Notes: generated by a model from the letters alone, not told the origin. DNA of 64,000 bases from Patescibacteria group bacterium (GCA_038063415.1 JBBTVD010000011.1:779-64778); one strand, 5' to 3'. Shown: positions 1,943-39,426, counted from the stretch's first letter. A program made the numbers and translations.

Positions 1943-2854
1943 TCATGTCTGACTTTCAAGCCATCGCTCTGCCTCAAGAGCAGCCGCACAGCCAAACCCT
2001 GCTGCCGTTACTGCTTGCATATATTGATGGTCATAGACATCCCCCGCGACGAAGACCCCTTCAATATTGGTATGGAAATGCTCGCGTGCCTTAATAAAAC
2101 CTTTCTCATCTACTTCAATGCCCTTAAAGACAGTTGAATTCGGAATGTGTCCAATAGCGACGAAAACCCCATCCGTTACAAGCTCTTTTTCTTCACCATT
2201 TATAGTATCTTTTACTTTGACTCCGGAGACTTTCATCTCACCAAGTACTTGCGTAATCTGCGTATTCATCATAAAGGTGATCTTGGGATTCGCCTTTGCT
2301 TTGTCCTGCATGGCTTGGGAAGCCCGAAACTCACCCCGACGATGAATGATCGTTACCTGTTTGGCAAAACGAGTCAAGACACAGGCTTCTTCCATTGCAC
2401 TATCGCCTCCTCCGGCCACAATCACGTCTTTGTCACGGAAGAATGGCGCATCACAAGGCGCACAAGAGGAGATACCACGACCAATCTTTTCAGACTCTCC
2501 TGGGACACCAAGCCATTTGGTGTCAGCACCAGTCGCGATAATGACTGCTTTCCCTTCATACTGCTGTTCATCAGTCTTGACGACAAAAGGCTGCTTCCCA
2601 AAGTCTGTCGCGATAACATTGACATCAATGATCTCCGCACCATGATGCTCGGTTTGCTTACGCATATTGGCCATAAGGTCTGGCCCTTGAATACCTTCTG
2701 GAAAGCCTGGAAAATTTTCGACTTCTGTGGTGAGCATGAGTTGTCCTCCCCACTTTGCACCAGCAAGAAGAAGTGTTTTAAGACCAGCGCGGGTGTTATA
2801 AATTGCAGCGGTGAGACCTGCTGGGCCTGAACCAATAATGATTACATCGTACAT
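1943..2854 (-). CDS. trxB: Thioredoxin-disulfide reductase
   Basis: N-terminal FAD fold GSGPAG, redox-active Cys pair (CAPC) followed by DAPFF, NADPH-binding GGGDSA, about 300 aa. Canonical TrxR architecture. Confidence 0.9.
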   Translation of the reverse strand: MYDVIIIGSGPAGLTAAIYNTRAGLKTLLLAGAKWGGQLMLTTEVENFPGFPEGIQGPDLMANMRKQTEHHGAEIIDVNVIATDFGKQPFVVKTDEQQYEGKAVIIATGADTKWLGVPGESEKIGRGISSCAPCDAPFFRDKDVIVAGGGDSAMEEACVLTRFAKQVTIIHRRGEFRASQAMQDKAKANPKITFMMNTQITQVLGEMKVSGVKVKDTINGEEKELVTDGVFVAIGHIPNSTVFKGIEVDEKGFIKAREHFHTNIEGVFVAGDVYDHQYMQAVTAAGFGCAAALEAERWLESQT

Positions 2855-2863
2855 AGAAATAAG

Positions 2864-3187
2864 TTATCCGAGGATTTCATTAATCATTTTTTTGTAGCTT
2901 TCTTTTCCTTGAGCCCCGACAGTTGACTTCACTGGCTTGCCATCTTTAAAGGCCATAACCGTTGGGATACTCATAATGCCATATTGCCCTGCGGCCTGTG
3001 GGTTTTCATCAACATTAAGCTTGCCGACAACTAATTTCCCGGCGTATTCTTTGGCAAGTTCTTCAATAATTGGAGAAACCATGCGGCAAGGACCACACCA
3101 GACTGCCCAGAAATCGACGAGAACTGGGAGCTTACTTTCGAGAACTTGTTGTTTAAAAGTGGAATCGGTAAAAGTGACGTCTGCCAT
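2864..3187 (-). CDS. trxA: Thioredoxin
   Basis: 107 aa with a WCGPC active site, immediately upstream of trxB on the same strand. Confidence 0.9.
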
Positions 3188-4527: not shown

Positions 4528-4562
4528 GATCGACTCTCGTTTTTCTTATCTGACAAGTGTTT

Positions 4563-5467
4563 ATCTCTTGCAAACAAGGCTTGTCTTCCTGGAGGGAGAG
4601 AAGGCAACAGATTGCCAATAGCCAAATGAAGATAAAATCAATCCCATGGCATGCCCTTCCCAACCCTTTAGATCCACAAACTGTACATTACCAGCTCCTG
4701 TATTGTTGATAATCTCTCGTACCCGTTTTTTGGGGAAATTACGATCGCCTTCCGTCTGCCCGACAATTACTTGTGCGCGAGTCGCTGGAATTAATCCAGT
4801 GTCCGAGAACGACCAACAGATGTTTGTTCACTTCTTGAGGTTCAAAACGAAACTTACGATTCTCTGTTCGTTCCTCTAGCTTGAGTACCCCTTTAAATCT
4901 ATTCAATAGTTTGGTAATAAGTGACGATACACCTAGTAATGTACGGCCTGTTGTCCGCAAATGCCCCTTATTATCGAGACTTGTAGCATTAAACAATCCA
5001 ATCGTATCTACTGATAATCCAAGCTCTGCTGCAATTTGAGCGACAGGTCCGCCAGCAGAAAAGCCTATAATCTCTGCATTCGTATCAGTAATCATATCTT
5101 GCATTGCAGCAAGAATATCTCGTGCTTTATCAAGTTGCATTTGGGTTACTTTCACTCCTTCGGGAAGTCCTTCCGCAGCAGGATCTACTAGCTTACTATT
5201 AGAATTTCGTTCTCCTGTATAGGCAAGTCCCACAACTCTTACTGGATCTTCTCCCTGACTTTCGGCAAGAGCTTCTAAATCTACTCGTAATCTTGGTAAC
5301 ACACCTTTCCCCGAAGCGTTATATGGAGATTCATAAACAAGAAGGCGAGTTCTTCTCTGCTGATCAGCAGGAAGGGCAGCGATATCTTTTGGCAAGACTT
5401 GCATTAGTTGCACATCTCCATGGCCATAATTCTCTTTATTACCTACGATGACACTTCTTTCTGTCAC
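4563..5467 (-). pseudogene. Alpha/beta-hydrolase-like protein (GFSAG nucleophile-elbow motif), frameshifted near 4745-4765
   Basis: ORF 4739..5467 carries GFSAGGPVA (GxSxG). After a frame change, the downstream sequence 4563-4745 encodes ...VDLKGWEGHAMGL..., which matches VRSDWEGHGIGL in the paralogous N-terminal domain of ORF 27640..29559. Other segments also align between the two (KARDILAAMQDM versus KAEDMIAAMDTA). Confidence 0.5.
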
Positions 5468-5727: not shown

Positions 5728-6630
5728 TTATGCAGCCATACTAGCTATTCTTTTTGGAGAAGAAAGTCGCCTTCTTGTTGCCTGGAGTGGTCTTCTTGCC
5801 CTTCGTACCAAAACACTTGGTTCAGAATCTTCCTCTTCATCCGGCTGAACAACAACATCTTTTGTTACTGGAGATTTTATCCCCTCATGTTCTGCAAGCA
5901 AAGCATCTTGAATATGCTTGGGCAGCAAGCTTAAGATAAGATACAGAAGTATACGAGAAAACTTTAGCTTTTGCTCTTCCTCTTCGGTAAGCCCAGCACG
6001 CAAGAGAGCTGTTTGCTCCTTTGCCAAGAGTGATGCAACCCGACGAAGTGTCGGTGCATCCAAACTCTCAAGTACTGGCATGGCATGTTCACTTCGCAAA
6101 ATATCCCCCAAGGCCGCAGGCGCACTCTCTGGGGCAGTATCTCCAAGAATATCTTTAACCACATTTTTATATAACTCATTTTTAAGAAGGCTTACTTCCG
6201 GCCTTTCTGGTATAGCGACACCCTGTTTTTTTTCTCCAGATCCTCCTTGCATGTCATGCGTCACTTGCCTATGAATCCCCTCGTAGGCTTGCGCCATAGC
6301 CTCAAGTTGTTGCTGTGGATCGGTGTATTGTTCTTTTACGGCAAGTAGTGCTGCCTTTTCTTGAGCTTGTGCTTCACGAGACAACACATCATTTTGTCGC
6401 ACTAACTCTTGGGGATTTTCTCTTCTATAATCCGATCGAGATGTCGTCGTCTCTGCTCCGTTCACTCCTATTCTTGTAGGCCACCGCCATGCTCTCTCAG
6501 GAGCTTGAGTGATCGTAGGACGACGAGGTTCGTCACCAGCAAAAGTTCGTACTCCTAATGGAGCACCTCTTTCGCTTGTACGCGCTACAAAAGATCTCGC
6601 CTGTGGTTGTACGCTTAGTACTTCTGTCAT
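5728..6630 (-). CDS. Hypothetical protein (300 aa), charged, with an Ala/Glu/Gln-rich central region
   Basis: Long complete ORF. No recognisable motif. Confidence 0.45.
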   Translation of the reverse strand: MTEVLSVQPQARSFVARTSERGAPLGVRTFAGDEPRRPTITQAPERAWRWPTRIGVNGAETTTSRSDYRRENPQELVRQNDVLSREAQAQEKAALLAVKEQYTDPQQQLEAMAQAYEGIHRQVTHDMQGGSGEKKQGVAIPERPEVSLLKNELYKNVVKDILGDTAPESAPAALGDILRSEHAMPVLESLDAPTLRRVASLLAKEQTALLRAGLTEEEEQKLKFSRILLYLILSLLPKHIQDALLAEHEGIKSPVTKDVVVQPDEEEDSEPSVLVRRARRPLQATRRRLSSPKRIASMAA

Positions 6631-6700
6631 AGTAGCGATATACTACTACGCAATAAGAAAACGTGCATGATATTTGCCTTATACAAACATCACAATGCGG

Positions 6701-8275
6701 TTACCCCAAATCTTCACTCTTAGCATGCAGATAATAAAACCACTGATCAAAAAAGGCAAAAAGGAGCTTAAAAGGAGCTTCAATAAGGAAATCAAAGAGA
6801 AAAAGAAAAATATTCACTTGAGAGATACTCTGGGTAAGTTTACGCCCCGTACGAATAACCGGCATAAAAAGGAAATCGACCAACAATGTTCCTAGCCCTT
6901 GCGTATCCCCCACACGGTAGACATTGGCAAGCAGTGCAATACGATAAGCCAGGAATGAAACAATCGCAAGGAAGAAGGTAAAGATCCCCATACTAATAAT
7001 AGTAAATTCTAGACTGGAAAGAATCAAAATGATACTTCCGAAAGAAATGATAAAGGCACCTAGCCACAAAATGTCAAAAGCAATGACCAACGCACCACTT
7101 CGTTTCTGATTTTTGGCAGTCACCAAACGTTTACCCAACTGGGGATTCTCCTCAAAGAGAAGTTGTGTAATAAAGGTATGGATTCGCTCAGAATTACTCT
7201 TGCCTGGTGTCCGAATAAAGAAACTCACAACTACCATAAGTAACGGTGGGATAACAATATTAATAATCATCGATCCCCACAGAATGTGTCCATAAAAAAT
7301 TCGCTCGTATGTCCCCTCGATAGCAAAAGCAAAGGCAACTTTGGTCATCAAAATAAAGATAACCGATCGAATAACGGCTCGTTTTACTTTGGAATCAATG
7401 CCGTGATACCGTGTCTCACAAGCGGCAAAAACAGCCTCCTGTAGTGCTTCTTTATTTTCAAGGAATGATTTAAGATTGTCCTTACCCAAATCCAAGATAT
7501 CCTCCAAGATAAACCAGACAGCCGTTCGCCGTTTAACATAAGCATAAATTTTATCTTTTAAAGGATAGTTGAGTTGCTTAAGGATTTCTTTGTATCCTTT
7601 AAGAAAATGCTCAACCGTGAAATCAAAGGTTTCAGGAGTAAGCTTGCCGAAATACTGAACAAACATATGGTAACGCAGAAAAGCCAGATCATCACGTGCA
7701 AAAGCCTTACGAACCGCCATAAAAACCTGCGCGTCTTTGGTCTCTTTGGTGTCATCAAGGATCTCAACATCGTCACGAAGTACGTGAAACATAAAATTGG
7801 TCATGACTTCTTTTTTGTGCTTAGGGTTCAGGATATATTGAATTTCTGCCGACATCAAATCATAAATCCAGTCATTAATAATGGCATCTGGCACTCGATG
7901 CTTTTCCATAACAAGCAAACGTAGCTTCAAGTAGCGATCAATCGTATCTTCGACTTTGGTAACAATAGATCTGGGAAGCTCATTCTCTGGCAAGTACCGT
8001 GCCCAAAGCAATTCTTTAATTAAGGGAAGGCCAGTGGTTTCGCCTGTGCCTCCCAAAAGTAAACGACGCTTAAGGATGCGCTCAATAGTTGCACGAAGGA
8101 CAACTTCATCTTCGCGAAATTCCATAGCATTGCGCAATCGTTCATACCAGGTAGCGAATTTAGAAACGATAGGATTAACTGTTATTTTTTCTTCCTCGGT
8201 TGTGGGACTGTCTTTTTTCTCAAATACTTCCAACAGATAGTTAGCCATCTGTGAAAGTGGACGATACGTATCCAT
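6701..8275 (-). CDS. Hypothetical membrane protein: ~300-aa soluble N-terminal domain plus a C-terminal multi-helix hydrophobic domain
   Basis: 524-aa ORF. The C-terminal half has several long hydrophobic stretches (IVIPPLLMVVVSFF, LGAFIISFGSIILIL, IFTFFLAIVSFLAY). Confidence 0.55.
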   Translation of the reverse strand: MDTYRPLSQMANYLLEVFEKKDSPTTEEEKITVNPIVSKFATWYERLRNAMEFREDEVVLRATIERILKRRLLLGGTGETTGLPLIKELLWARYLPENELPRSIVTKVEDTIDRYLKLRLLVMEKHRVPDAIINDWIYDLMSAEIQYILNPKHKKEVMTNFMFHVLRDDVEILDDTKETKDAQVFMAVRKAFARDDLAFLRYHMFVQYFGKLTPETFDFTVEHFLKGYKEILKQLNYPLKDKIYAYVKRRTAVWFILEDILDLGKDNLKSFLENKEALQEAVFAACETRYHGIDSKVKRAVIRSVIFILMTKVAFAFAIEGTYERIFYGHILWGSMIINIVIPPLLMVVVSFFIRTPGKSNSERIHTFITQLLFEENPQLGKRLVTAKNQKRSGALVIAFDILWLGAFIISFGSIILILSSLEFTIISMGIFTFFLAIVSFLAYRIALLANVYRVGDTQGLGTLLVDFLFMPVIRTGRKLTQSISQVNIFLFLFDFLIEAPFKLLFAFFDQWFYYLHAKSEDLG

Positions 8276-8392: not shown

Positions 8393-9202
8393 ATGAAAAA
8401 AGAAACTCCTGTAGAACCAGTCCTAGAATCAGAACCTAAAAAGAAAAAAGATTACTTCACGCTTCGCATTCCTCGATTTAGCTTTGAAAATACAAGAATC
8501 AATGGTTTTCTTGTGGTATGTCTTGTCATTTTTGCCTTCCTGCTTGGTATGCTTGTGAGTAAAGTAACGTACCTTGAAAAGATGGCTACGCAGTCAGCTC
8601 CGACACCAGCAGCACCAGGGGCCGCAGAGCCAACGATTGCTCCCCCTCCACAAATTGTGGATGTAGCATCTGGTAAGCTACCTATTCTTGGTGACCCAAA
8701 TGCAAAAGTAACCGTGGTTGAGTTTAGCGACTTTCAATGTCCGTTCTGTAAGAGAGCATTTGATGATGCTATTGCACAAATAAAGAAAGAATACGTTGAC
8801 ACCAATAAAATCGCTTTTGCTTTCCGTCACTCTCCTCTCACCAGTATCCACCCCAACGCAAGGGAAGCCTCCCTTGCTTCTGAATGCGCAAATGAGCAGG
8901 GTGATTTTTGGACATACCATGACCAACTCTTTAATACACAAGATGACTGGTCTCCAAAGGCAGGCAACGCAGCAACTGACGCGTTCATAGAGATTGCTGG
9001 AGGATTGGGAATGGACGCTGATCAATTTAGATCATGCCTTGAGTCTGAGAAGCATGCACCAAGAGTTGATGCAGACATGCAAGATGCTTCAACAGTTCAA
9101 GTAGATGGGACACCAACCTTCTTTATTAATGGCTATCGAGTAGTCGGAGCCGTACCTTTTGCTGATATCAAGAAAGTAATTGAAGCCGAATTAAAGAAAT
9201 AA
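8393..9202 (+). CDS. DsbA/BdbD-family thiol:disulfide oxidoreductase, membrane-anchored
   Basis: N-terminal transmembrane helix, then a thioredoxin-fold active site FSDFQCPFCKRAF (CPxC) and the FINGY motif typical of the DsbA family. Confidence 0.8.
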   Translation: MKKETPVEPVLESEPKKKKDYFTLRIPRFSFENTRINGFLVVCLVIFAFLLGMLVSKVTYLEKMATQSAPTPAAPGAAEPTIAPPPQIVDVASGKLPILGDPNAKVTVVEFSDFQCPFCKRAFDDAIAQIKKEYVDTNKIAFAFRHSPLTSIHPNAREASLASECANEQGDFWTYHDQLFNTQDDWSPKAGNAATDAFIEIAGGLGMDADQFRSCLESEKHAPRVDADMQDASTVQVDGTPTFFINGYRVVGAVPFADIKKVIEAELKK

Positions 9203-14647: not shown

Positions 14648-14654
14648 ACTTTTC

Positions 14655-22959: not shown

Positions 22960-23334
22960 ATGGTCGATGGAGCAGAATCACGGGAAACAAATCAAACTCC
23001 TGAAGAAATAGCTACTGAACTCTTACACAAGGCTACATGGGGTTCACCTGCATTATATGCAGCTCAAGATTTTGCCGAGTTTTGTCTTGCTGATGGATAT
23101 GAGCCATCTGTCAGAGAAAAAAAAAGAGAAAAAATCAATGATCGTATAACTGAACATCGATTGGAAAAGCCAGGATATGGGTATACTTTGGCTCAATTTA
23201 ATGCACTATATCCAAACCTCGCTAGAAATAGGACTGCTGTAACTTTTGGTGCAAATTTATATGGGAAAGTACAGGAGATTACTGATAGACCTGCGCCTTC
23301 TCCAGAACCTCCTCCACTATCACAACAACCCTAG
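22960..23334 (+). CDS. Hypothetical protein (124 aa)
   Basis: ORF preceded by a TTGACA-N17-TAATAT promoter-like sequence (22925-22953) embedded in a (gacaa)x4 tandem repeat. Confidence 0.4.
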   Translation: MVDGAESRETNQTPEEIATELLHKATWGSPALYAAQDFAEFCLADGYEPSVREKKREKINDRITEHRLEKPGYGYTLAQFNALYPNLARNRTAVTFGANLYGKVQEITDRPAPSPEPPPLSQQP

Positions 23335-24360
23335 CTGCTCCTGTTCCTTGCCAAACTGCGTATCAAGCCGCTTGAGCAAACTATTGAATTCATGCTCTTT
23401 AAAGGTCTTACGAAGGGCAGCAATATCAAAATCTGCACAGGCACAATCAGCAAGATCAAACTGAATTGGTGCATCAGTGATGATCTGGGCGAGTTTTTTG
23501 GCAAGTGCAGATTGCTCAGCATCAGTTGCTAGCTTCAGCCCAATCTTTTCAGGAAGCTCCCCTATTTTTTCATACAGGTTCTCAAAGGTTTTGAACTCTT
23601 GTAGGAGCTTACTGGCAGTCTTTGGACCAATTCCTGTCACGCCAGGATAACCATCTGATGGGTCGCCAATCAGCGCCTTATAATCGACAAACTGACTCGG
23701 ATGTACCCCATATTTCTCCTCAACTGCCGCTTCATCGTACATAACCGTCTTGGTAATCCCTGTCTGTGGCATCATTACCTTTACCTGAGGGTTCACTAGC
23801 TGTAACAAATCCCGATCCCCTGTCAGAATGACGACCTCTAATTCGTTAGTATGATCGGAGGCTGTATTGCGAGGGGGGGCAGTCGTGGGATTCAATTGAG
23901 AGTGGGTGACGCGACTGGGGTCCCCTGCTCGAGCGCCCGCAGGAAGATCTTCCGAGGACGTCGGAGCGGGGTGAGGAGCGTCAGGACCCGCTGAGACAAC
24001 AGCCTTCGTCGCAATTGTCCCAATCAAATCATCCCCCTCATACCCATCCAACTCAAAAATCTCTACCTTCATCGTCCGCAGCAACTCCCGGATCAGATGC
24101 ATCTGGGAAATTAGATCATCAGGAGGAGGTTGCCTATTCTCGTGATACCCAGCAAAAAGAGTCTGTCTAAAGGTTGGTGCAGCACGATCAAAACAGACAG
24201 CCAGATACTCAGGCTTCTGATCCTCGAGCACAAGAAAAAGCATGGTAAAGAAGCCATAAATAGCGTTTACAAATTCTCCTTTGGGATTGGTGAGTGTCGG
24301 ATAGGCATGATAGGCGCGGTATAAGATAGCGTTACCATCGATAAGAAGAAGCTTCTGCAT
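23320..24360 (-). CDS. 5'-3' exonuclease (Pol I N-terminal / FEN-like domain, stand-alone)
   Basis: MQKLLLIDGNAILYRAYHA N-terminus, the GYEGDDLIGT and LTGDRDLLQL metal-binding motifs, and an H3TH region. Contains a ~50-aa low-complexity in-frame insertion between the conserved blocks, encoded by repeat family B. Confidence 0.85.
   Translation of the reverse strand: MQKLLLIDGNAILYRAYHAYPTLTNPKGEFVNAIYGFFTMLFLVLEDQKPEYLAVCFDRAAPTFRQTLFAGYHENRQPPPDDLISQMHLIRELLRTMKVEIFELDGYEGDDLIGTIATKAVVSAGPDAPHPAPTSSEDLPAGARAGDPSRVTHSQLNPTTAPPRNTASDHTNELEVVILTGDRDLLQLVNPQVKVMMPQTGITKTVMYDEAAVEEKYGVHPSQFVDYKALIGDPSDGYPGVTGIGPKTASKLLQEFKTFENLYEKIGELPEKIGLKLATDAEQSALAKKLAQIITDAPIQFDLADCACADFDIAALRKTFKEHEFNSLLKRLDTQFGKEQEQLGLL
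23838..23995. repeat. Family B repeat, copy 2, in frame inside the 5'-3' exonuclease CDS
   Basis: The core 23912-23990 matches 10556-10635. It encodes AGPDAPHPAPTSSEDLPAGARAGDPSRVTHSQLNPTTAPP between the GTIATKAV and VVILTGDRD blocks. Confidence 0.7.
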
Positions 24361-26271: not shown

Positions 26272-27573
26272 CTATGCTAGCCCCATTACTTCTTTTTTAA
26301 ACTGGTCTCCTCGATCTTTATAATTCTTAAAGACACCAAAGCTAGGAGCGGCCGGAGAGAGTAAACAAATCTTTCCAGAATTTGTCTCATCGAGTGCATA
26401 AACAATTGCTTCATGCATCGAGTGAACATCAAGCTTCTTTATTTTCTTTTCTCCTCCAGCAGTCACAATTGCCTCCCAAATCTTTTCTCCTGTAGTCGGA
26501 AAAAGAATAGTCGTTCGTACGCCACTGGTTACGAGGTATTGCCCAAGCTCGTTATAATCTACTCCCCGATCATGTCCTCCAGCAATGAGTGTCTCTACCT
26601 CTCCAGCAAAGGCGTCTAATGCACCAATGGTAGCTTCGGGGACGGTAGCAAGAGAATCGTTATAAAACCTAATACCTTGCTTTTCCCCAACATACTCCAA
26701 ACGGTGCGGTAAGCCATAAAACGTTTTAAGCACTTCTATAATATATTTTGTTGATACTTCAGCAAGTCGTGCAGCCATAATAGCCGCACACACATTTTCA
26801 AGGTTATGCGCTCCAGGCAATGCAACATCTTTGGTTGCAATAATTTCATCTTCAGTCTCATTTTTCTTGACGTAAATGGCTCCACTAAGGGTATAACAAG
26901 CATTGTTTGTTTCACGCTCCCGGCTCACATAAAAAAGCTGCGCATCAGTATAGAGGTCTGATTCATTGGTCACAGGATAATCTCGATTGAGTACCGCAAA
27001 ATCTGTCTGTTTCTGGAAGCGTAAGAGGTTACGTTTGGCCTCAATATAGGACTCAACATTCGGATGGTAATCCAAATGCTCTGAGGTAAGCATGAGCATG
27101 ACTGCAATGTGTGGGCTATATTTTATATCCTGTAATTGAAAGCTTGAAAGTTCAAGCACTGTCCAAGAATGATCAGTTAAAGTGTCCAACACTTCGATTG
27201 CAGGCTTTCCAATGTTTCCTCCAAGATATACCTCTTTTTTATCTTTCTTGAGCATTTCATAGATAAGTGTCGCTGTTGTACTCTTTCCTTTGGTTCCAGT
27301 CACACCAATCGTTTTGCCTTTTGCATTGGCAAAAAAGATATTGGTAGCGGTGGTATATGGGATAGTCACAAGTTCTGGACGAACCCCAGGAGATTTGATA
27401 GCAAGTTCATAATCCTGTTGATCTTCTAGATAATCTTCTCCATCAGAGGCATCAACCACATCGATGATGGCCTCAGGAAAATGTTTTTTGAGAAAAGCAT
27501 GCGTTGCTTTGCCCTCCACTCCGTAGCCAATAATTAGTATCTTTTTGTATTTTTTAAGTTCATTAATCGTCAT
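26272..27573 (-). CDS. murD: Mur ligase, probably UDP-N-acetylmuramoylalanine--D-glutamate ligase
   Basis: N-terminal Rossmann ILIIGYGVEG and a Mur-ligase P-loop GVTGTKGKSTT. Three-domain size of 433 aa. MurD versus MurC is not resolved. Confidence 0.7.
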   Translation of the reverse strand: MTINELKKYKKILIIGYGVEGKATHAFLKKHFPEAIIDVVDASDGEDYLEDQQDYELAIKSPGVRPELVTIPYTTATNIFFANAKGKTIGVTGTKGKSTTATLIYEMLKKDKKEVYLGGNIGKPAIEVLDTLTDHSWTVLELSSFQLQDIKYSPHIAVMLMLTSEHLDYHPNVESYIEAKRNLLRFQKQTDFAVLNRDYPVTNESDLYTDAQLFYVSRERETNNACYTLSGAIYVKKNETEDEIIATKDVALPGAHNLENVCAAIMAARLAEVSTKYIIEVLKTFYGLPHRLEYVGEKQGIRFYNDSLATVPEATIGALDAFAGEVETLIAGGHDRGVDYNELGQYLVTSGVRTTILFPTTGEKIWEAIVTAGGEKKIKKLDVHSMHEAIVYALDETNSGKICLLSPAAPSFGVFKNYKDRGDQFKKEVMGLA

Positions 27574-27639
27574 ATTTCTTACTATGTATTATAACATGAG
27601 ATATAAGGATACATGATACAATTATACATATAGCTAGCT

Positions 27640-29559
27640 ATGAAACTAGAAGCAGGAGGAGAGGGTAGCCCACAACCACAAATAACTAAAGAGACAGAAA
27701 ACTTCGGTCGTGGTGAAATCACCATAATACGAGCCAGGCCAACAGTCAAAAAAGCAGATGCGGATACCGCTCCTCTCTTTTTTGTTCAAGGACATGGACA
27801 AGAGCCAAATCTTGAAAAATATGTGAATCTGTTTTCCAAAACTGGTCGTGAAACTTTTAGCGTTGCCTTCACTGGTCCCAGAAGAGTAAATAGAAAAAGC
27901 TCACGAAATCGAGAAGCCCCTGAGATAAGCGCTAAGGTTCCACCCTATCAAGTAGATAAAGCAGAGGATATGATTGCAGCTATGGATACAGCAGGCATTC
28001 AGCAAGCAGACATCGTCGCTCCATCAGCGGGAGCGATTCCTGCACTGATTGCTCTTGCCAAATACCCAGATAGATTCCGTGATGTCGTTTTTGTCCATCC
28101 CAAACCTGATAATGTTGGTTATATAAAAACGCATCTACAGGTTTTAAAGGCGGGACATTTGTATAGGAAGAGAGTTGGTGGGGCAAAAATGCTGGCTGAT
28201 TTTAGAAAGATGGAGCTTGATAAAAAAGGATTCAGAGAAACCCGCATCGAACAAAAAACAGTCGCGCGTTTTCAATCACTTGCTGACTTGGTCATAGAGT
28301 TACGAGCAACGCAACCTCATTTGCGTTTTGCTCTCGTGGATCACAAAGACGATTATTGGTCTTCAGGAGATGAATTAAAAAAACGACTTGACCCATATCT
28401 TTCTACATTTGTAAGATCAGACTGGGAAGGACATGGTATTGGCCTAAAACAAGAGAGAGTAGACATGCTTGTTGAGCTTCTTGCCAAGATGGAAGAAGAA
28501 AGGGAAACTTCTCAATATTTGCATCCACCTATCCGCTGGCCGCATGAAGAAGGGCGCGGTTTAGCACGTTCGTTCAAAGTTCGTAGGCCAAAGAGGGAAA
28601 AGGGTGTACCATTCCAAATGGAAGCAATGCGCCGTTTAAATGGACCTGAAGCCGAATCCTTAGGGAATAAATTTAACTTTATAGAACTCACTCATAAATT
28701 AGGCTATCGTACTCCTCCTCAAATATTGGTCAATCCAGAGCAAAATCTATCAGATCGTCAAGAACTTGCTAACGAACATTTTAAGGATCCTACAGAAAAG
28801 ATTATTTGCAAACCTTTACATGGTGTTGGTGGATTAAAGATTACTGAATTGACAGCCGCAGATCTCCCTGCCTTTCTTCAGACAGTTACTGCTCCGTATA
28901 TTATTCAAAAGCTTATGCCTATTGAGGCCGAAATTCGCTACGCTCGTGTTGCAGACGAACGAAACCATGTCGTCAGAAGAATCTATGACGAGAAAGAAAT
29001 TCCCAAAGTCGTTGGAGATGGCCGAAGAACGAAAGGGCAATTAATTCGTAGAGGGCAAGTTCCTTGGTATTCAAAAATGATGACGCAGTTATTGAACATA
29101 GGAGACCTACGAACAGTTGTTCCTGAAGGAAGTACAGTTCATTTATCATTTTTTGGCACCCCTTATAAAGCGCCAGATGAACTTGAATGGAATTCGAAGA
29201 AAGAACAACGAGTCAAAAATGTTGATATGTTTATGCAACGATTTGTATCTGACTTTGAAGGAGAGTTACAAACGCCTCTCCCCTATTTATGTTTTGATAT
29301 CGGAATCCTTAGTCCTAAAGAAGTTTTAGATAAACAATATGATTCGTCTGACGACGCATTTACTGCACTAAAAGACATTCTTGTACCATTTGAAGCTCAA
29401 GTGCCTTTTTCTGTATACGGATACGCAAAAAGAAGTACAGCAACAAGGAGAGAAAAATGGAGGATTGTACGTCGAATGATGGGTCCAGGTTTCTTAGGAG
29501 GAAAAAAAGAAGATCTTATTGGTAAAACACCACAAAATGGAAAAAAAGGTATAAAATGA
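27640..29559 (+). CDS. Two-domain protein: N-terminal alpha/beta-hydrolase-like domain (nucleophile-elbow position reads APSAG, i.e. AxSxG not strict GxSxG) plus a C-terminal ATP-grasp-like domain
   Basis: DIVAPSAGAIPALIALAKYP and the N-terminal region are paralogous to pseudogene 4563..5467. The C-terminal KIICKPLHGVGGLKI...YIIQKLMP resembles an ATP-grasp (RimK-like) ATP-binding region. Domain calls are from motif recognition only. Confidence 0.55.
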   Translation: MKLEAGGEGSPQPQITKETENFGRGEITIIRARPTVKKADADTAPLFFVQGHGQEPNLEKYVNLFSKTGRETFSVAFTGPRRVNRKSSRNREAPEISAKVPPYQVDKAEDMIAAMDTAGIQQADIVAPSAGAIPALIALAKYPDRFRDVVFVHPKPDNVGYIKTHLQVLKAGHLYRKRVGGAKMLADFRKMELDKKGFRETRIEQKTVARFQSLADLVIELRATQPHLRFALVDHKDDYWSSGDELKKRLDPYLSTFVRSDWEGHGIGLKQERVDMLVELLAKMEEERETSQYLHPPIRWPHEEGRGLARSFKVRRPKREKGVPFQMEAMRRLNGPEAESLGNKFNFIELTHKLGYRTPPQILVNPEQNLSDRQELANEHFKDPTEKIICKPLHGVGGLKITELTAADLPAFLQTVTAPYIIQKLMPIEAEIRYARVADERNHVVRRIYDEKEIPKVVGDGRRTKGQLIRRGQVPWYSKMMTQLLNIGDLRTVVPEGSTVHLSFFGTPYKAPDELEWNSKKEQRVKNVDMFMQRFVSDFEGELQTPLPYLCFDIGILSPKEVLDKQYDSSDDAFTALKDILVPFEAQVPFSVYGYAKRSTATRREKWRIVRRMMGPGFLGGKKEDLIGKTPQNGKKGIK

Positions 29560-29588
29560 CAAGGGATCGTCTTAATCGTCGCCAGCCC

Positions 29589-30932
29589 TCAATTATGATC
29601 TTCTGCTGAGAAAAGAAACTCCTTCGGAATCCTATGTTCAGTTGAACGTGCAAACACTTCCTCAGTAAGTTTCACAATATCAGGAACCTGTGGCAAGACT
29701 TCTTTTTGGAAGAACTGCATGATTATAGCATCTTTATAGGATTCTTTCTGCATGGCAAGATGAAATGCCACTTGAACCTCCTCGGGAGTCCCCACACAAT
29801 CAAACGGTTTAATTTCAGCCACACCCAACAATTCTTTATAGGTTGCAAGAAGCTCTTCCTTCGCCAGAAGGTTCTGTCCAAAGAGACGTACAACTTCATC
29901 TTGAGAAAGGAAAGCAGCAAGCATGATAAAGGCAAACGAACATTTGGCACACTCGCCACACCATTTCCGATCAGAGCCTTTCCCTGTAACCGTAAAGTTA
30001 CGATTGCAGCTGGAAAATACCGGGAAATAGGCAGGATACTGGACAAATGCTTTGGTAATCGCAAGCTCAGACAAGGGACGAAGCAAAGAGAAATAATGCA
30101 CACTAGGGGTAATAAATTGTGCTACATATGACTGAAAAAGCTTTTCAAATTCAAACGACTTACTCCATTGATGGTTAACCACATCCCCCAGATACGCTAC
30201 ATTGCCATAATTTGCACTGTGCTCATTGGAAACGACAACATAGCGGTAATCAGAGAGGATTGCCGTAAATAACCCGAGAAAAGCATATTGTGCAGAAACA
30301 GGGATATGTCCGTTATAAGTATTCTCCCGCTTATTCAGCTCAAAGAGCTGCGAGTCGAGTGTCCGAGTAATAGTCAGCTCTTCTCCTCCAAGTAGCTGTA
30401 TCACTGCATCCCGAAGCGGGTGCCTATTCACAACAAAGCTGGTAAACGACTTTACATGCTTTTTGAGCAGCTCTGCTGAAACAATCGAGTCTTTCCCTCC
30501 ACCAATACCGACCAACGAGCGATCTTTACGAGGAAACGTAATCGGCGATGTTGTCTGATCAGCCGTAAAAGGAAAGGTAATACTTCCTCGAAAATCAAGC
30601 TTATTTTGATAAAAGAATTCACCCAACCCTTTGGTATACACCGTATTCCAAAAATCTGCCTGATCACGAGTCAGGCTAAAGCCTTTAATGATAATCTCTG
30701 GTGGACAAAACAGCTTATAATAACTGATTCCCAACACCAACAGCAAGTTCTGTAACGCTGTTTTGAGAAGTTCTGGGGGAATAGTTGGATCTTTTACTAA
30801 TGAAGGAAAGAGAACAGTTTCGGTGAAGGAAAAAGATTCGTTGTTGTGTTTGATCTCATAGGTAAATGACGCTTCCCCCTGCCCTTCGTCAAAGCTATAG
30901 CCCTTAAAAATAAATACGCTGTTTTGTGGCAT
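29589..30932 (-). CDS. PP-loop superfamily ATP pyrophosphatase with a QueC/ExsB-like C-terminal Cys cluster and a unique ~130-aa N-terminal domain
   Basis: GIGGGKDS (SGGxDS PP-loop) at about residue 135. C-terminal SSCN...WCGECAKCSFA resembles the QueC zinc site. Specificity unknown. Confidence 0.55.
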   Translation of the reverse strand: MPQNSVFIFKGYSFDEGQGEASFTYEIKHNNESFSFTETVLFPSLVKDPTIPPELLKTALQNLLLVLGISYYKLFCPPEIIIKGFSLTRDQADFWNTVYTKGLGEFFYQNKLDFRGSITFPFTADQTTSPITFPRKDRSLVGIGGGKDSIVSAELLKKHVKSFTSFVVNRHPLRDAVIQLLGGEELTITRTLDSQLFELNKRENTYNGHIPVSAQYAFLGLFTAILSDYRYVVVSNEHSANYGNVAYLGDVVNHQWSKSFEFEKLFQSYVAQFITPSVHYFSLLRPLSELAITKAFVQYPAYFPVFSSCNRNFTVTGKGSDRKWCGECAKCSFAFIMLAAFLSQDEVVRLFGQNLLAKEELLATYKELLGVAEIKPFDCVGTPEEVQVAFHLAMQKESYKDAIIMQFFQKEVLPQVPDIVKLTEEVFARSTEHRIPKEFLFSAEDHN

Positions 30933-30960
30933 AGATGTTGCTGTATCCTTCTGATCTGTG

Positions 30961-31034
30961 TACCAGAGGTGGGGATCGAACCCACGACCTCAGCGTTATG
31001 AATGCTGTGCTCTAACCGACTGAGCTACCCTGGC
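30961..31034 (-). tRNA. tRNA with CAU anticodon (elongator Met, or Ile2 if lysidinylated)
   Basis: Manual fold: acceptor GCCAGGG/CTCTGGT (two G-U pairs), D-arm GCTC-AGTCGGTTA-GAGC, anticodon arm CAGCA-TTCATAA-CGCTG (one A-C mismatch), T-arm GTGGG-TTCGATC-CCCAC. No encoded CCA. Confidence 0.8.
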
Positions 31035-31059
31035 AATTTATGCTCTATAGTATAGCAAT

Positions 31060-31088
31060 TTGACCTGCCTGAACGCAAATGGTATACT
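31060..31088 (+). promoter_or_regulatory. TTGACC-N17-TATACT promoter directly upstream of tRNA-fMet. A palindromic tatagtata region probably also supplies the divergent tRNA promoter.
   Basis: ttgacc at 31060-31065, a 17-bp spacer, tatact at 31083-31088, and the tRNA 5' end at 31099. Confidence 0.45.
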
Positions 31089-31098
31089 AGTGGATACA

Positions 31099-31167
31099 CG
31101 CGGGGTAGTGTACGGTGCACGTGAGGCTCATAATCTTACAGGCTAGGTTCAACTCCTAGCCCCGCAA
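31099..31167 (+). tRNA. Initiator tRNA-fMet (CAU). The D-arm is short and the anticodon stem is not GC-rich.
   Basis: 5' CGCGGGG and 3' CCCCGCA-A reproduce the bacterial initiator acceptor stem with the C1xA72 mismatch. The anticodon loop CTCATAA is identical to E. coli tRNA-fMet. T-arm is CTAGG-TTCAACT-CCTAG. The fold gives only 69 nt with a 3-bp D-stem. Confidence 0.6.
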
Positions 31168-31281
31168 CAGAGAATTGTTTAATCACATAAAGATATCTAT
31201 ACTTCGACAAGGTTTAGCAAGGTTTAGCCTCAAATTAATGACTAATGCCTCTATCTAGAGTCACATGACAGTCACATTAGA

Positions 31282-35523: not shown

Positions 35524-35622
35524 GGTGAGATATAATCATAGTCTGTTTTCTACCAATTTGCAAAAACCCGTTTTTTTGCTTGACTATAAGCATTTTTATT
35601 GATATTATGGGACTTACTATTT

Positions 35623-36483
35623 ATGAAACCGATCAAAATAGACGACGCACATAAAGAATTCTTGGATTTTTTGAAAGCAAAGAAGCACTCAACGGCTACC
35701 GTTCTTGCCTATGGTAAAGATATTGATCAGCTCGCTTCTTTCCTTCAGGAACTTGAAAAGCATCATATTCATGATGTCTCAAAAGATGATATCCAGTCTT
35801 TCCTTGGAAAATTAGCTGAAAAAGGCTACACACCTAAGTCACTTTCTCGTAAACTTAACTCTACCCGTACTTTTTACCGTTTCTTAAAAGTGAATGAGTA
35901 TGTTACTGATGATCCTTCCCTCTTAGTATCACATCCACAGTATGAACTGGCTGCACCAAGAATCCTTAAGCCAACCGAATATAGAGCGCTTCGTGACGCT
36001 GCGCGCAATGATGCACGAATGTACGCTATTATCGAAATCCTTCTTCAGACTGGTATTCGTATTGGTGAACTCGCTGATCTGCGTGTTGGAGATATTAGAA
36101 CAGATGACCTCCTTATCAGACCTCATGAAAAACATGCCGAGAGACTTGTCCCTATTAATAAATCTGCTAAAGAAGCTCTTCATCGATATATGCAGACTCG
36201 TCCACAAATTGAAGATGATCACGTATTCGTAACGAAATCTGGCAAACCTTTCCTCGTCAGAAATATAAGAACAGCGATTGAGCGATATTTCCGAATCGCC
36301 GGAATTGAAAATGCAAAAGTGAACGACCTCCGCCATACGTTTGTCGCCCATCATTTGAAGCATGGGGTTTCACTCGTGCTACTCTCAAAGATTCTTGGAC
36401 ATCGAAGACTCTCAACAACCGAAAGATACCTTGAATACGTCCAAGACCGAGCAAAAGATACCACAACCCTCAGCGAGCTCTAA
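35623..36483 (+). CDS. Tyrosine site-specific recombinase (XerC/XerD-like or integrase)
   Basis: N-terminal SAM-like core-binding domain and a C-terminal catalytic R...HxxR...Y motif (LRHTFVAHHL ... GHRRLSTTERYLEY). Confidence 0.85.
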   Translation: MKPIKIDDAHKEFLDFLKAKKHSTATVLAYGKDIDQLASFLQELEKHHIHDVSKDDIQSFLGKLAEKGYTPKSLSRKLNSTRTFYRFLKVNEYVTDDPSLLVSHPQYELAAPRILKPTEYRALRDAARNDARMYAIIEILLQTGIRIGELADLRVGDIRTDDLLIRPHEKHAERLVPINKSAKEALHRYMQTRPQIEDDHVFVTKSGKPFLVRNIRTAIERYFRIAGIENAKVNDLRHTFVAHHLKHGVSLVLLSKILGHRRLSTTERYLEYVQDRAKDTTTLSEL

Positions 36484-36486
36484 AGG

Positions 36487-36933
36487 ATGAAGCGGCTTGG
36501 AGAAAAGACAATTATCACAAATTTTCTCAAACAGCATACCCTTGCCACAATTGCTACTGTTAATCCAAAAAATCTTAAACCGGAATCTGCACTAATTGCT
36601 TTCGCAGAGCTTGAGAACTTAGAAATACTTTTTATAACGCTCGAGGGATCTCGTAAATACACGAACCTTCTACAAAATACTCAAGTCGCAATGGTTATTG
36701 GCTGGGATAAACACTATTGGAGAACCCTTCAATATGAAGGACTGGCAGTGAGTGTTGAACCCGCTGCTGTTGCTTACTATAAAGAACTCTTCTCACAGAA
36801 AAAAGATACACCGTGTACTGAGGTATTCCTTTCCAATCCAGACATGAAGCTCTTTAAGATTACACCAACGTGGATTGGGTACTCTGATTTCACTGGGAAA
36901 AAACCACAGGTAATTGAGCTGAAGAACTTCTAG
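36487..36933 (+). CDS. Pyridoxamine 5'-phosphate oxidase-like FMN-binding split-barrel protein
   Basis: 148 aa with a LATIATVNP...VAMVIGWD pattern typical of the PNPOx-like / general stress protein 26 family. Confidence 0.65.
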   Translation: MKRLGEKTIITNFLKQHTLATIATVNPKNLKPESALIAFAELENLEILFITLEGSRKYTNLLQNTQVAMVIGWDKHYWRTLQYEGLAVSVEPAAVAYYKELFSQKKDTPCTEVFLSNPDMKLFKITPTWIGYSDFTGKKPQVIELKNF

Positions 36934-36934
36934 G

Positions 36935-37006
36935 TGCGTCCGGCTGGAATCGAACCAACGACATGGTGTGTATAAGACACCTGTTCTACCGCTGAACTAC
37001 GGACGC
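36935..37006 (-). tRNA. tRNA with anticodon loop CUUAUAC, i.e. anticodon UAU (Ile, decodes AUA)
   Basis: Manual fold: acceptor GCGTCCG/CGGACGC (perfect), D-arm GTTC-AGCGGTA-GAAC, anticodon arm GGTGT-CTTATAC-ACACC (perfect), T-arm GTTGG-TTCGATT-CCAGC. 72 nt, followed by CC. Confidence 0.7.
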
Positions 37007-37050
37007 ATAATGAGGCTCATTGTAACAAACGGTTCTCAAAAAAACAAATG

Positions 37051-39426
37051 CTATAACTTCGCTCGCTGAGCAATTTCCTTCTCAACAACATCCACACTTC
37101 GAGCATATTTCAGACGGGAAAGCTCGACAACGAGCTGTGCAACTCGTTCATTCCGCATGGCCTTCTCCTTGGCAATGTCTTTAGTTGTATCCAGTGAAAA
37201 TGGCAAAGTCGGCTCTCCCCCAACGAGGGTACGCATGTAGCAATTATACTTGTCGACGTTAATCAAGTCCTGTTCGCTAAACGTTGGTTGGAATTCGTGT
37301 TGTAAGAAGTTGGCATCGGTCACACCAACACGGAATGAGGCAATCGTTCCGACGTTACCGAAGATAGCGTTTTTGATCTCTTCTTCCATCTGTCCAATAA
37401 ACTGATTAGCAACTACGAGGTTAAGACGGTATTTTCGAGCCTCAGACAGAATTTGGGCGAAATCAGGAGTTGCGAAGTTTTGGAACTCGTCCACATAAAG
37501 AAAGAAATCTTTTCGCTGATCCATAGGGATATCCTGACGAGACATCGCAGCCACCAAGATTTTGGGCACAAGCACCAGTCCTAAGAAGTTCGAATTTTCT
37601 TCACCAATTTTTCCTTTTGCGAGATTGATCAGCAGGATCTTTTTTTCATCCATTACTTTTCGGAAGTTAAACGCACTATCTGATTGACCGATAATATTTC
37701 GGATCATTTTGTTGGTAACGAATCGGCCAAATTTTGACGTGATGTAATCAAGCACTTCAGATTTGTGGAAATCAGAGGTTTGAGCAATCTGATCAGTCCA
37801 GTAACGTCTGACGATAGGATCTTTCACTTTTGGCAGCAGTTCTTCCACATACTTTTGATCAGTGAGCACCCGCACCACCTCGATAAGAGTACTTCCCTTC
37901 TCTGACATAACCGTCAACATAGCATTACGAACCGCGTGTTCAAAACGAGGACCGACCATACCTGTTTTGTTCGGATCAAACAACTTATACATAAGGCCAA
38001 TGATCGAATTGGCCACAAAGTGAATTTGTTGCTCATTGTCTGCTTCAAGTAGATTAAAACCCATCGGCCGCTCAAGATCAGAAGGATCAAAAAGTATGAC
38101 GTCTTCTGCTCGCTTAGGTGGAATTAATCGCAACGTATCTTCTACTAAATCTCCGTGCGGATCAATAACAGCGAGCCCGTGTCCATCCATAATATCCTGC
38201 ATAATCATAGATTTAAGAAACTCGGATTTTCCAGTACCGGTCTTTCCGATGATATAGGTATGTCGCCGGCGATCATCAATATCAATATGTACGGGACGAG
38301 TCATGCCACGGAAACTACTCTTCCCCAAAAATAGTCCAGTAGTCGGGACGTTTGAGGGAACTGGTGCTCGCTTTGAGGTCAACCAATGAATTCCCGGGGT
38401 GGACACGCCTTTGTTGGGTAAATGAAAAACAGTAGCAAGCTCTTCACTCGTAAGAATTGACTGTTGTCCAAAGATTGGCATATAGCGATAGATAAAGTCC
38501 TGCATAAACCAACCTTTGAAATAAATATGGTTTTTCTTGAATTTGTTTACCGACGAAGCAAACTGGCCAAAAGCGTTGGTAAGATTTCGTAGATGTGAAT
38601 CTGCCTGATCCTGTGAGATGGAACAAACAACCATTCTTACCGTTGTATTAAATCCTGGTTTACTTATTTTATTTTCTATCCCTTCCAGCTCTTTGGCATC
38701 AGTCTGGTAACTCGCTTTTTCAGGATTTGCTTCATTCTTTTTTACCCCTCCGATATAATTACGACCTGTTTTCTTCCAACTATTGTCTGCTGGACTAATC
38801 ACAATTTGGATAACAGCCCCTTCACCCTCTCCCATTTTGGCAAGAGTAGAAGTGATTGAAGAAAGTGGATCAACAGGAAGATCTTTGTATACTTTCATTG
38901 GCAGGTAGTTGCCATGCTTGACGCGTAGCGAACTAAAAGCTACCTTCCCATTCTCGGTAAAAATATTATAGTCTGAGCCAAGCGTTGCTCCTTCCATTTG
39001 TTTTGCAGCGGGAGAAGTAACCGGCACGATATCAGCATCAGGATAGGCTCCATTGATTTGTTTTTCGATAAAATCACGATATTTACTACTCACATGCACA
39101 TAGAAACGAATATCTCCAGTACGCCCAACAATTTCAAAAGAGAAATGTGGATGCCGGCGAAAGAATTCTAACCGGCCACTTTTATGGAGTGCATAGAGAC
39201 TGGAGAACATTTGCTCAGCAGCATCAATTTTGATCTCGTTATCCTTGGGCAGACTAATTTGTAAAAGCGTTGAATCGAGAGCTTCAGCCTCACGACCCCG
39301 GTGATGTAACCACAGGACAAAAAGATAAAACCCTATCCCCCCGACAGCTAACAGCACGAGGACAACAACCGTTGTGATGACAAGTGCCGTCATAATGGCC
39401 GCAGGATTAGTAAGTGAAAATTCCAT
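37051..39426 (-). CDS. VirD4/TraG/TraD-like coupling-protein ATPase (FtsK/HerA superfamily), membrane-anchored
   Basis: N-terminal transmembrane segment, Walker A GKTGTGKS followed by VIDPHGD, Walker B-like LYVDEFQNF, 791 aa. Family placement is from motifs only. Confidence 0.6.
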   Translation of the reverse strand: MEFSLTNPAAIMTALVITTVVVLVLLAVGGIGFYLFVLWLHHRGREAEALDSTLLQISLPKDNEIKIDAAEQMFSSLYALHKSGRLEFFRRHPHFSFEIVGRTGDIRFYVHVSSKYRDFIEKQINGAYPDADIVPVTSPAAKQMEGATLGSDYNIFTENGKVAFSSLRVKHGNYLPMKVYKDLPVDPLSSITSTLAKMGEGEGAVIQIVISPADNSWKKTGRNYIGGVKKNEANPEKASYQTDAKELEGIENKISKPGFNTTVRMVVCSISQDQADSHLRNLTNAFGQFASSVNKFKKNHIYFKGWFMQDFIYRYMPIFGQQSILTSEELATVFHLPNKGVSTPGIHWLTSKRAPVPSNVPTTGLFLGKSSFRGMTRPVHIDIDDRRRHTYIIGKTGTGKSEFLKSMIMQDIMDGHGLAVIDPHGDLVEDTLRLIPPKRAEDVILFDPSDLERPMGFNLLEADNEQQIHFVANSIIGLMYKLFDPNKTGMVGPRFEHAVRNAMLTVMSEKGSTLIEVVRVLTDQKYVEELLPKVKDPIVRRYWTDQIAQTSDFHKSEVLDYITSKFGRFVTNKMIRNIIGQSDSAFNFRKVMDEKKILLINLAKGKIGEENSNFLGLVLVPKILVAAMSRQDIPMDQRKDFFLYVDEFQNFATPDFAQILSEARKYRLNLVVANQFIGQMEEEIKNAIFGNVGTIASFRVGVTDANFLQHEFQPTFSEQDLINVDKYNCYMRTLVGGEPTLPFSLDTTKDIAKEKAMRNERVAQLVVELSRLKYARSVDVVEKEIAQRAKL

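Follow-up and report, generated by a model that had tools for sequence, protein, structure and literature searches.

A stretch of 64,000 nucleotides (nt) from a Patescibacteria group bacterium (GCA_038063415.1 JBBTVD010000011.1:779-64778), which we refer to as the window, carries between positions 27640 and 30932 two convergent genes for proteins of 639 and 447 amino acids (aa). An original prediction, made from the DNA alone, had placed the two open reading frames (ORFs) at 27640..29559 (+) and 29589..30932 (-), coordinates that were borne out exactly; the motifs that it quoted all occur, VAPSAGA, IICKPLHGVGGLKI and YIIQKLM in the longer protein and GIGGGKDS and WCGECAKCSF in the shorter one, and the two tRNA(CAU) genes that it had noticed next door do follow, at 30960-31034 (-) and 31099-31168 (+). 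We think it likely that two unrelated things meet at this locus, namely the known gene pair murL and murD2 and, inserted between them, a rare gene for a fused alpha/beta-hydrolase (ABH) and ATP-grasp ligase that replaces a decayed resident copy. The features on which this reading draws are the following.

26272..27573, minus strand: murD2, 433 aa, with a match to TIGR01087 (murD) at E=2e-99 and the four MurD2 residues
27563..27571: left copy of a 9-nt direct repeat, TTAATCGTC, whose reverse complement, GACGATTAA, is the start and first codons of murD2
27640..29559, plus strand: gene of the 639-aa two-module enzyme, with the hydrolase at aa 1-~291 followed by the ATP-grasp core at aa ~292-629
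27640..28512, plus strand: alpha/beta-hydrolase module, with an Abhydrolase_1 match and a predicted catalytic triad
28024-28026, plus strand: Ser129, in the elbow A-P-S-A-G
28351-28353, plus strand: Asp238 of the predicted triad
28432-28434, plus strand: His265 of the predicted triad
28513..29526, plus strand: ATP-grasp ligase core, from a 60-sequence profile and an AlphaFold2 (AF2) model
29572..29580: right copy of that direct repeat, 12 nt past the stop of the 639-aa gene and 8 nt below that of murL
29589..30932, minus strand: murL, 447 aa, with MurL_N and a QueC-like PP-loop catalytic domain
29940-29960, minus strand: C-x2-C-x2-C cluster of MurL
30486-30503, minus strand: PP-loop of MurL, GGGKDS

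The 447-aa protein, previously described as an unusual PP-loop ATPase, can be assigned confidently by its sequence to MurL, a family that has already been characterised biochemically. The NCBIfam model NF041275, UDP-N-acetyl-alpha-D-muramoyl-L-alanyl-L-glutamate epimerase, matches it at E=7e-118 with 394 bits, aligning residues 5-440 to positions 8-440 of a 447-position profile, and precomputed Pfam assignments give it PF26299 (MurL_N) and PF26298 (MurL_epimerase_C). A local copy of Pfam returned no match for the protein, as did a sequence search of the PDB, and among the Pfam and NCBIfam models none of those for QueC, TtuA, MnmA or TilS matched it at E<=1, MurL alone doing so. At least 4,854 relatives were found at E<=1e-10 in a protein database search, several of them already named epimerase by JGI or NCBI; the best 120 all carry MurL_N together with MurL_epimerase_C, and those close relatives that have names (54-62% identity) are from metagenome-assembled genomes of Patescibacteria and Levybacteria. 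The N-terminal ~130 aa, which the original prediction had regarded as unique to this protein, are conserved family-wide and correspond to MurL_N.

The earlier description of a PP-loop enzyme with a QueC-like Cys cluster finds support at the level of fold, the top PDB matches including QueC, TtuA, QatC, argininosuccinate synthase and MnmA. The AF2 model of MurL, built with database homologs, has a predicted local distance difference test value (pLDDT) of 91.8 and a predicted template modelling score (pTM) of 0.91, and its nearest structures in Foldseek are the QueC entries 2pg3 and 3bl5 (TM-score 0.61-0.64, normalised to the target); the further matches, among them Cap9 as well as those just named, are all PP-loop ATP pyrophosphatases. 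Like them, the MurL catalytic domain combines the PP-loop fold with an SGGxDS-type motif, here GGGKDS, of which G145, G146, K147 and S149 are invariant and G144 and D148 at least 90% conserved in MurL family alignments. Like QueC, it has a C-x2-C-x2-C cluster in the same place, whose C325, C328 and C331 are invariant in MurL family alignments A7 and A8, and two more Cys residues are invariant as well, C309 within S-C-N and C379 within K-P-F-x-C-V-G (29796-30008 in the window). It differs from QueC and the thiolases in its extra, family-specific N-terminal domain of ~130 aa, and in that its substrate is a UDP-muramyl dipeptide which is epimerised, with neither nitrile formation nor thiolation. 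MurL requires ATP and Mg2+, releases AMP and works only in the L-to-D direction; adenylation of the glutamate (Glu) alpha-carboxylate has been hypothesised for an enzyme that was said to lack known conserved domains (PMC5808125; PMC8788868), and open reviews call its mechanism unclear. The PP-loop ATP pyrophosphatase fold of our model would fit this proposed adenylation and AMP-forming chemistry. The invariant Cys cluster probably binds a metal, and C309 and C379 are candidates for the acid/base residues of the epimerisation or for a metal ligand.

The partner of MurL, which the original prediction did not consider, is encoded just beyond the 639-aa gene. When the protein of 26272..27573 is aligned with E. 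coli MurD, positions D182, K348, A414 and L416 become E, R, P and F, within the motifs TSEH, GGHDR and SPAAPSF. This is the MurD2 state as defined by mutagenesis, in which Xanthomonas E197, R358, P433 and F435 correspond to E. coli D182, K348, A414 and L416, MurD2 being specific for L-Glu and E. coli MurD for D-Glu (PMC8788868). The protein is accordingly a predicted MurD2-type ligase and the true partner of MurL, and since the window holds both MurL and a MurD with the MurD2-state residues, it would encode the complete MurD2/MurL route to peptidoglycan D-Glu. MurD2 would ligate L-Glu onto UDP-MurNAc-L-Ala, and MurL would then invert the L-Glu residue to D-Glu, consuming ATP and releasing AMP. 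The likeness to the known system extends from the full-length profile match, both MurL Pfam domains and the MurD2 residues to the adjacency of the two genes in relatives, as in Xanthomonas. The differences lie in the host, a member of the Patescibacteria, or Candidate Phyla Radiation (CPR), which is absent from the distribution given in reviews, and in the splitting of the pair here by a 2-kb insertion on the opposite strand. A 2021 review confines MurD2/MurL to relatively few genera of Proteobacteria and Actinobacteria (PMC8788868); judging by the relatives found here, the pathway seems to reach much further than is stated in the open literature, in which we found no paper on MurL in Patescibacteria.

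The place of the 639-aa gene between murL and murD2 is peculiar to this lineage. We collected 40 metagenome loci with MurL relatives (33-68% identity) and located MurD-like and fusion-like genes in them by tblastn. A MurD-like hit was present in 30 loci, and in 29 of these murL is followed downstream by murD on the same strand, in most cases with an overlap or within ~100 nt; the closest relatives (MurL 62%, MurD 69-71% identity) keep this order. In the window the gap between murL and murD2 is 2,015 nt and is occupied by the 639-aa gene on the opposite strand, a gene that recurs, identical, in three independent assemblies. The original prediction had raised co-occurrence of its two genes across genomes as a check, and none appeared: no relative of the 639-aa protein was detected in any of the 40 murL loci (tblastn), and neither murL nor murD in the four homolog loci with readable neighbours (P0002, P0004, P0005 and P0006). 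These two absences argue for a lineage-specific insertion rather than a conserved module, and the comparison of loci shows a 2-kb segment with one gene to have been inserted between murL and murD2 in this Patescibacteria lineage.

The edges and composition of the insert are consistent with such an event. The 9-nt word TTAATCGTC has just two occurrences in the window, one on either edge of the insert, and a shared word of at least 9 nt between the junction zones arose in 58 of 5000 shuffles (~1%). In three relatives (L010, L013 and L035) ATGAC(G/A)AT serves as the start of murD directly after murL. The repeat may be a target-site duplication or a footprint of microhomology. GC content at third codon positions (GC3) is 0.28 in the 639-aa gene, against 0.34-0.47 in seven core genes sampled (murL, murD2, ftsH and trxB among them), and the overall GC content of the insert is ordinary. 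The 66-nt spacer between the starts of murD2 and the fusion gene contains TGTTATAAT, a perfect extended -10 element without a -35 (27588-27596, minus strand), which lies 14 nt upstream of the murD2 ATG. The insert may therefore, once the operon had been split, have given murD2 a new promoter. A scan with consensus promoters and terminators found sites no more frequently than in shuffled sequence, and this element, for want of a -35, was not among them.

The inserted gene encodes two enzymes in one chain, both of which the original prediction had recognised. The N-terminal half is a predicted Ser-Asp-His alpha/beta-hydrolase: Abhydrolase_1 (PF00561) matches the 639-aa protein with 27.6 bits, above the Pfam cutoff of 25.8, and S129, D238 and H265 are invariant in a six-sequence alignment (A3) that includes the frameshift-repaired paralog described below. 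A hydrolase profile run against the PDB found generic ABH esterases and hydrolases. The module resembles Abhydrolase_1 enzymes such as the EstT/EstX macrolide esterases, BphD C-C hydrolases and valacyclovir hydrolase in that the elbow aligns and the Ser, Asp and His are conserved. It differs from them in that the sequence alignment is limited to the elbow region, in that the elbow is A-P-S-A-G here and L-Q-S-T-D in homologs P0002 and P0003 instead of G-x-S-x-G, and in that an ATP-grasp ligase is fused to the domain or encoded beside it.

The ATP-grasp call, by comparison, is sub-threshold for the single sequence and solid by family profile (E=4e-10) and model. Scanned alone, the grasp core misses the Pfam gathering thresholds (ATPgrasp_ST 14.9 bits against 31.4, GSH-S_ATP 14.5 against 23, ATP-grasp_3 14.1 against 23.2), as does the full-length protein (13.6, 13.3 and 12.8 bits, respectively), and searches of the PDB with the single 639-aa sequence or with a six-sequence profile found nothing. 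A profile search of 1.84 billion cluster representatives gave 139 grasp relatives, mostly stand-alone proteins of 330-400 aa. The 60-sequence family profile then matched cyanophycin synthase 7lgn (E=4.4e-10) and GshAB 3ln6 (1e-7) in the PDB, together with chain 7ta5 (2e-6), which the sequence table labels 'Glutathione synthase' and the fold library cyanophycin synthetase 2, and with a RimK-domain protein and TTLLs. ATP-grasp families are the only Pfam matches within the 60 members, with ATPgrasp_ST (PF14397) first (20 of 60, best E-value 1e-7), followed by ATPgrasp_YheCD (PF14398; 7 of 60, 3e-5), GSH-S_ATP, RimK and TTL. The AF2 model computed on the 60-sequence alignment (pLDDT 91.1, pTM 0.90) has 366 Foldseek matches in the PDB at E<=1e-3, and the best 50 of the 366 are all ATP-grasp enzymes; VanA and Ddl, CphA1/2, GshF, DcsG and graspetide macrocyclases are among the matches listed. 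Across the 60 members K344, R433, D553 and E585 are invariant and K391, Q423 and Q587 at least 90% conserved; this set comprises the residues expected to bind ATP and Mg (two Lys, an Arg past the hinge, and Asp with Glu-x-Asn), with Gln in place of the usual Asn, and a WPHE motif at the N-terminus of the grasp is specific to the family. The assignment of the C-terminal half as a true ATP-grasp ligase therefore stands, most probably in the cyanophycin-synthetase/GshF/RimK-like branch.

The nearest characterised enzymes share only part of this layout. The module is like the G domain of CphA1/CphA2 and the grasp half of GshF/GshAB in its fold, in a KP-x-G-x-x-G-x-G ATP-binding strand and in a V-x-GDG-x-x-T insert. 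It is unlike CphA in lacking the Mur-ligase-like M domain and the N domain, only profile positions 47-244 being aligned, and unlike GshF/GshAB in lacking a glutamate-cysteine ligase domain; the family departs from both in its WPHE motif, in E-x-Q for the usual E-x-N and in its alpha/beta-hydrolase partner. ATPgrasp_ST, a sugar-transfer-associated family, and ATPgrasp_YheCD are the commonest Pfam matches across the family, but the 639-aa protein is sub-threshold for ATPgrasp_ST and no glycosyltransferase context was observed near the closest homologs. MurL and MurD2 are known enzymes; the hydrolase/ATP-grasp pair, rare and uncharacterised, is a variant from superfamilies that are themselves well known. 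The original prediction had left the function of the whole module open, which was apt for the hydrolase/ATP-grasp protein and not for the PP-loop protein, MurL being characterised.

The close family of the 639-aa protein comprises five other proteins among 5.8 billion, and no relative of it was found in GTDB species genomes or IMG/VR. Within it the grasp core is 50-66% identical, with a mean column identity of 70%. Four homologs (P0002 to P0005) have the grasp core first and the hydrolase last, the reverse of the 639-aa protein, and P0006 is a stand-alone grasp with a 312-aa Abhydrolase_1 gene 8 nt upstream on the same strand. The 639-aa protein is itself of mixed affinity, its grasp core being nearest to P0002 and P0003 (65-66%) and its hydrolase to P0004 and P0005 (33-37%). 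Further out, P0107 (L053 8001-10547) joins Abhydrolase_1, a VTT/DedA membrane domain and a grasp in one chain, and P0012 joins an AAA_33 P-loop kinase-like domain to a grasp region; P0024, P0039 and P0112, which are longer grasp relatives, were searched for cryptic hydrolase domains and gave none. The occurrence of split genes and of both fusion orders is strong evidence that the ligase and the hydrolase share one substrate, and by the same arrangements they are, on strong evidence, a predicted obligate and functionally coupled pair. A keyword search of the open literature found no title or abstract on such an ATP-grasp/hydrolase pairing. At the locus of P0107, an Acetyltransf_5 gene and a LysM-YkuD gene lie upstream.

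A second copy of the hydrolase lies elsewhere in the window, in a setting that can be compared with other genomes.

1943..2854, minus strand: TrxB (thioredoxin-reductase-like), 74.5-78% identical to its L001/L050 counterparts; Pfam Pyr_redox_2; with thioredoxin, the conserved downstream flank of the slot
2867..3187, minus strand: thioredoxin, 73-75% identical to the genes after the P0005 (L001) and P0004 (L050) fusions
4563..5467, minus strand: frameshifted hydrolase-only paralog (BLASTP E=1e-7), in the slot that holds an intact grasp-ABH gene in related genomes
6701..8275, minus strand: 524-aa protein, 73% identical to an L001 gene; upstream flank of the slot
8393..9202, plus strand: DSBA-like thioredoxin-fold protein, 57% identical to an L001 gene; Pfam Thioredoxin_4 and DSBA; also of the conserved upstream flank

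The original prediction had spotted this paralog as frameshifted and devoid of the ATP-grasp part, and it is real. Its ORF at 4739..5467 (-) aligns to residues 15-164 of the 639-aa protein (29% identity, E=1e-7), and after a change of frame the C-terminal WEGHAMGL block continues down to ~4563. The truncated 242-aa ORF is residue-identical in three independent Hainich groundwater assemblies, which makes the frameshift more than a one-off assembly error. No remnant of an ATP-grasp was detected beside it by tblastn, and the 300-aa ORF at 5728..6630 compared with the grasp profile (hhalign) at a probability of 0.08%. At the P0005 locus (L001) the order is DSBA-like gene, several genes, the 524-aa gene, a 90-aa ORF, a PIN gene, the grasp-ABH fusion, a 48-aa ORF, thioredoxin and TrxB, and the P0004 locus (L050) is similarly arranged. 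Between the same flanks the window has the 300-aa ORF, a 25-aa duplicate, the frameshifted paralog and two further ORFs. The duplicate (72% identity), at 5642-5716 (-), repeats the 524-aa protein's C-terminus ~1 kb downstream of where its gene ends, which suggests for the segment with the 300-aa ORF (5717-6700) an insertion of its own into the 3' end of that gene. GC3 in the slot (3401-6630) is low (paralog 0.29, 300-aa ORF 0.31, a 253-aa ORF 0.23), and neither these two ORFs nor the flanking 524-aa protein has a Pfam or PADLOC match. We considered whether the intact gene is a recent duplicate of the paralog and rejected this, the two hydrolase domains being only 26-29% identical. Most likely the paralog marks the ancestral locus and the inserted gene replaces the lost resident copy: in this history, which we infer, the resident copy would have lost its ligase half and be decaying, and the copy inside murL-murD2 would supply the function.

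Several observations weigh against the reading of a known MurL/MurD2 pair interrupted by a replacement gene. As regards the pair, the 394 bits of the MurL match fall below the 700-bit equivalog cutoff of NF041275, a model tuned to Xanthomonadales; the assignment of both Patescibacteria enzymes is made from sequence; and a window of 64 kb is too small to show that murI or a D-amino-acid aminotransferase is absent. As regards the insertion, the 9-nt repeat was found post hoc, with the ~1% frequency by shuffling given above, the ancestral murD2 would lack its ATG if the repeat were a simple target-site duplication, and no mobility gene (transposase or integrase) lies within the insert. As regards the replacement, the hydrolase of the paralog is only 28-30% identical to those of P0004 and P0005 although the flanking genes are 73-78% identical, which argues that the slot evolves fast and that the paralog is not a recently decayed ortholog of the P0005 type. 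Finally, more distant grasp relatives come without a hydrolase and in varied gene contexts.

Folds, conserved residues, family memberships, the insertion and the synteny are what the analysis shows; the chemistry we infer as the default of the two families. The 639-aa two-module enzyme would be cytoplasmic; its ATP-grasp half would turn a carboxylate into an acyl-phosphate and couple it to an amine, or perhaps to a thiol or hydroxyl, and its hydrolase half would cut or transfer an ester or amide of that substrate, for which a small amino-acid or peptide conjugate is our best guess. A bolder proposal is that the pair is a new two-enzyme system of Patescibacteria which makes or processes a small conjugate, either a low-molecular-weight thiol or an aminoacyl or peptidyl metabolite linked to thiol-disulfide homeostasis, and of which a copy in reversed order was captured in murL-murD2 when the resident copy lost its ligase half. 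In this full form we consider it rather unlikely; if true, the function would be important enough for the capture of a divergent copy with reversed domain order.

The leading specific guess for the function, unlikely as it is in itself, is a thiol-related conjugate, and the corresponding account has the pair make or turn over a low-molecular-weight thiol or cysteine conjugate, with a grasp whose action resembles that of GshF's glutathione-synthetase half and a hydrolase that behaves as a thioesterase or peptidase would. Thioredoxin followed by TrxB lies directly downstream of P0004 and P0005 on the same strand, and also at the window slot; after P0002, in a second divergent lineage, a DsbB gene is followed by a DSBA-like gene; and GshAB (1e-7) and 7ta5 (2e-6) are among the significant PDB profile matches. 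These amount to two independent contexts only, however, and thioredoxin-TrxB is a housekeeping pair. Cyanophycin synthetase scores above GshAB, a glutamate-cysteine ligase is present neither as a domain nor as a neighbour, the intact copy in the window has left the redox context, and the distant relatives have no redox neighbours. This account thus stays a long way short of probable, though it fares better than the others that follow.

The location of the insert raises a different idea, namely that the substrates of the fusion enzyme are peptidoglycan precursors or stem peptides, from which it might, for instance, remove or recycle an amino acid or to which it might add one, and that its position was selected for co-regulation with cell-wall synthesis. 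The gene does sit between two peptidoglycan genes, D-Ala-D-Ala and D-Ala-D-Lac ligases are among its fold matches, its nearest Pfam family is the sugar-transfer-associated ATP-grasp, FtsE/FtsX-like genes follow one distant relative, and a gene for a LysM-YkuD L,D-transpeptidase lies ~2.7 kb upstream of P0107 on the opposite strand. But the location is conserved in no relative and the gene runs on the strand opposite to murL and murD2; the Ddl-type matches reflect the shared ATP-grasp fold, the sequence profiles favouring cyanophycin synthetase and GshF; and the ancestral slot lies beside thioredoxin genes, not cell-wall genes. A role in peptidoglycan, whose support comes almost wholly from this non-conserved location, we regard as improbable.

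A gene of this kind could also be dispensable, neutral cargo of a mobile or hypervariable segment without a stable host function. Its GC3 is as low as in the variable-slot genes, the family has extremely few members, the paralog is decayed and a repeat footprint marks the insert. Yet the ORF is intact with all its catalytic residues conserved and is identical in the three assemblies, the grasp core has kept the identity across homologs given above, both modules have been kept together in three architectures, and the lack of a transposase or integrase inside the insert tells against this account too, which leaves it very improbable. Affiliation with a defence system or a phage was considered and rejected, there being no PADLOC match and no relative in IMG/VR.

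Least credible of all, and with hardly any chance of being right, is the pathway put forward by the original prediction, in which hydrolase, ATP-grasp and PP-loop enzyme are three steps in the modification of a small molecule, peptide or nucleotide: the genes are adjacent in the window, convergent and 29 nt apart, and ATP-grasp and PP-loop enzymes both activate carboxylates, but the PP-loop protein is assigned to MurL with MurD2 as its own partner, the fusion gene is found in 0 of 40 murL loci and murL or murD in 0 of 4 readable loci of fusion homologs, and the opposite strands preclude co-transcription. Of two outcomes that had been set against that pathway in advance, one came about, the PP-loop protein falling in a standard family (MurL, E=7e-118), and one did not, profile searches supporting the ATP-grasp call.

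Other parts of the window are described here in their own right. A tRNA-Ile gene with anticodon UAU (tat) at 36933-37006 is present besides the two divergent tRNA(CAU) genes (30960-31168); a UAU tRNA-Ile can read AUA without the lysidine modification. A tyrosine recombinase gene (Phage_integrase) at 35599..36483 adjoins that of a 791-aa TraG/VirD4-like type IV coupling protein at 37051..39426, and the region 35599-39426 may be part of a Patescibacteria type IV secretion or conjugation-like machinery or of an integrated element. At 12788-15707 the gene of a 619-aa ATP-dependent DNA ligase, in which all three DNA_ligase_A domains are present, adjoins that of a Fic/DOC-domain protein (350 aa). 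The protein encoded at 23320-24360 has a 5'-3' exonuclease / Pol I N-terminal domain, to which family models match in two stretches, split by a low-complexity, Pro/Ala/Ser-rich insert at about residues 120-170.

The reading that we prefer, a MurL/MurD2 pair split by a rare hydrolase/ATP-grasp gene, bears on each of its two parts. MurL/MurD2 is already established as an alternative source of peptidoglycan D-Glu, and MurL is recognised by existing annotation pipelines; what is added here is a QueC-like PP-loop fold with an invariant Cys cluster, which gives concrete residues for testing the adenylation hypothesis of the MurL reaction. The opposite-strand insertion that splits this conserved and probably essential operon is a case of operon remodelling in a streamlined genome. 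The hydrolase/ATP-grasp enzyme, for its part, belongs to a small, sharply defined family (6 close and ~139 distant members), which makes it a tractable target for new ligase chemistry in organisms of minimal metabolism.

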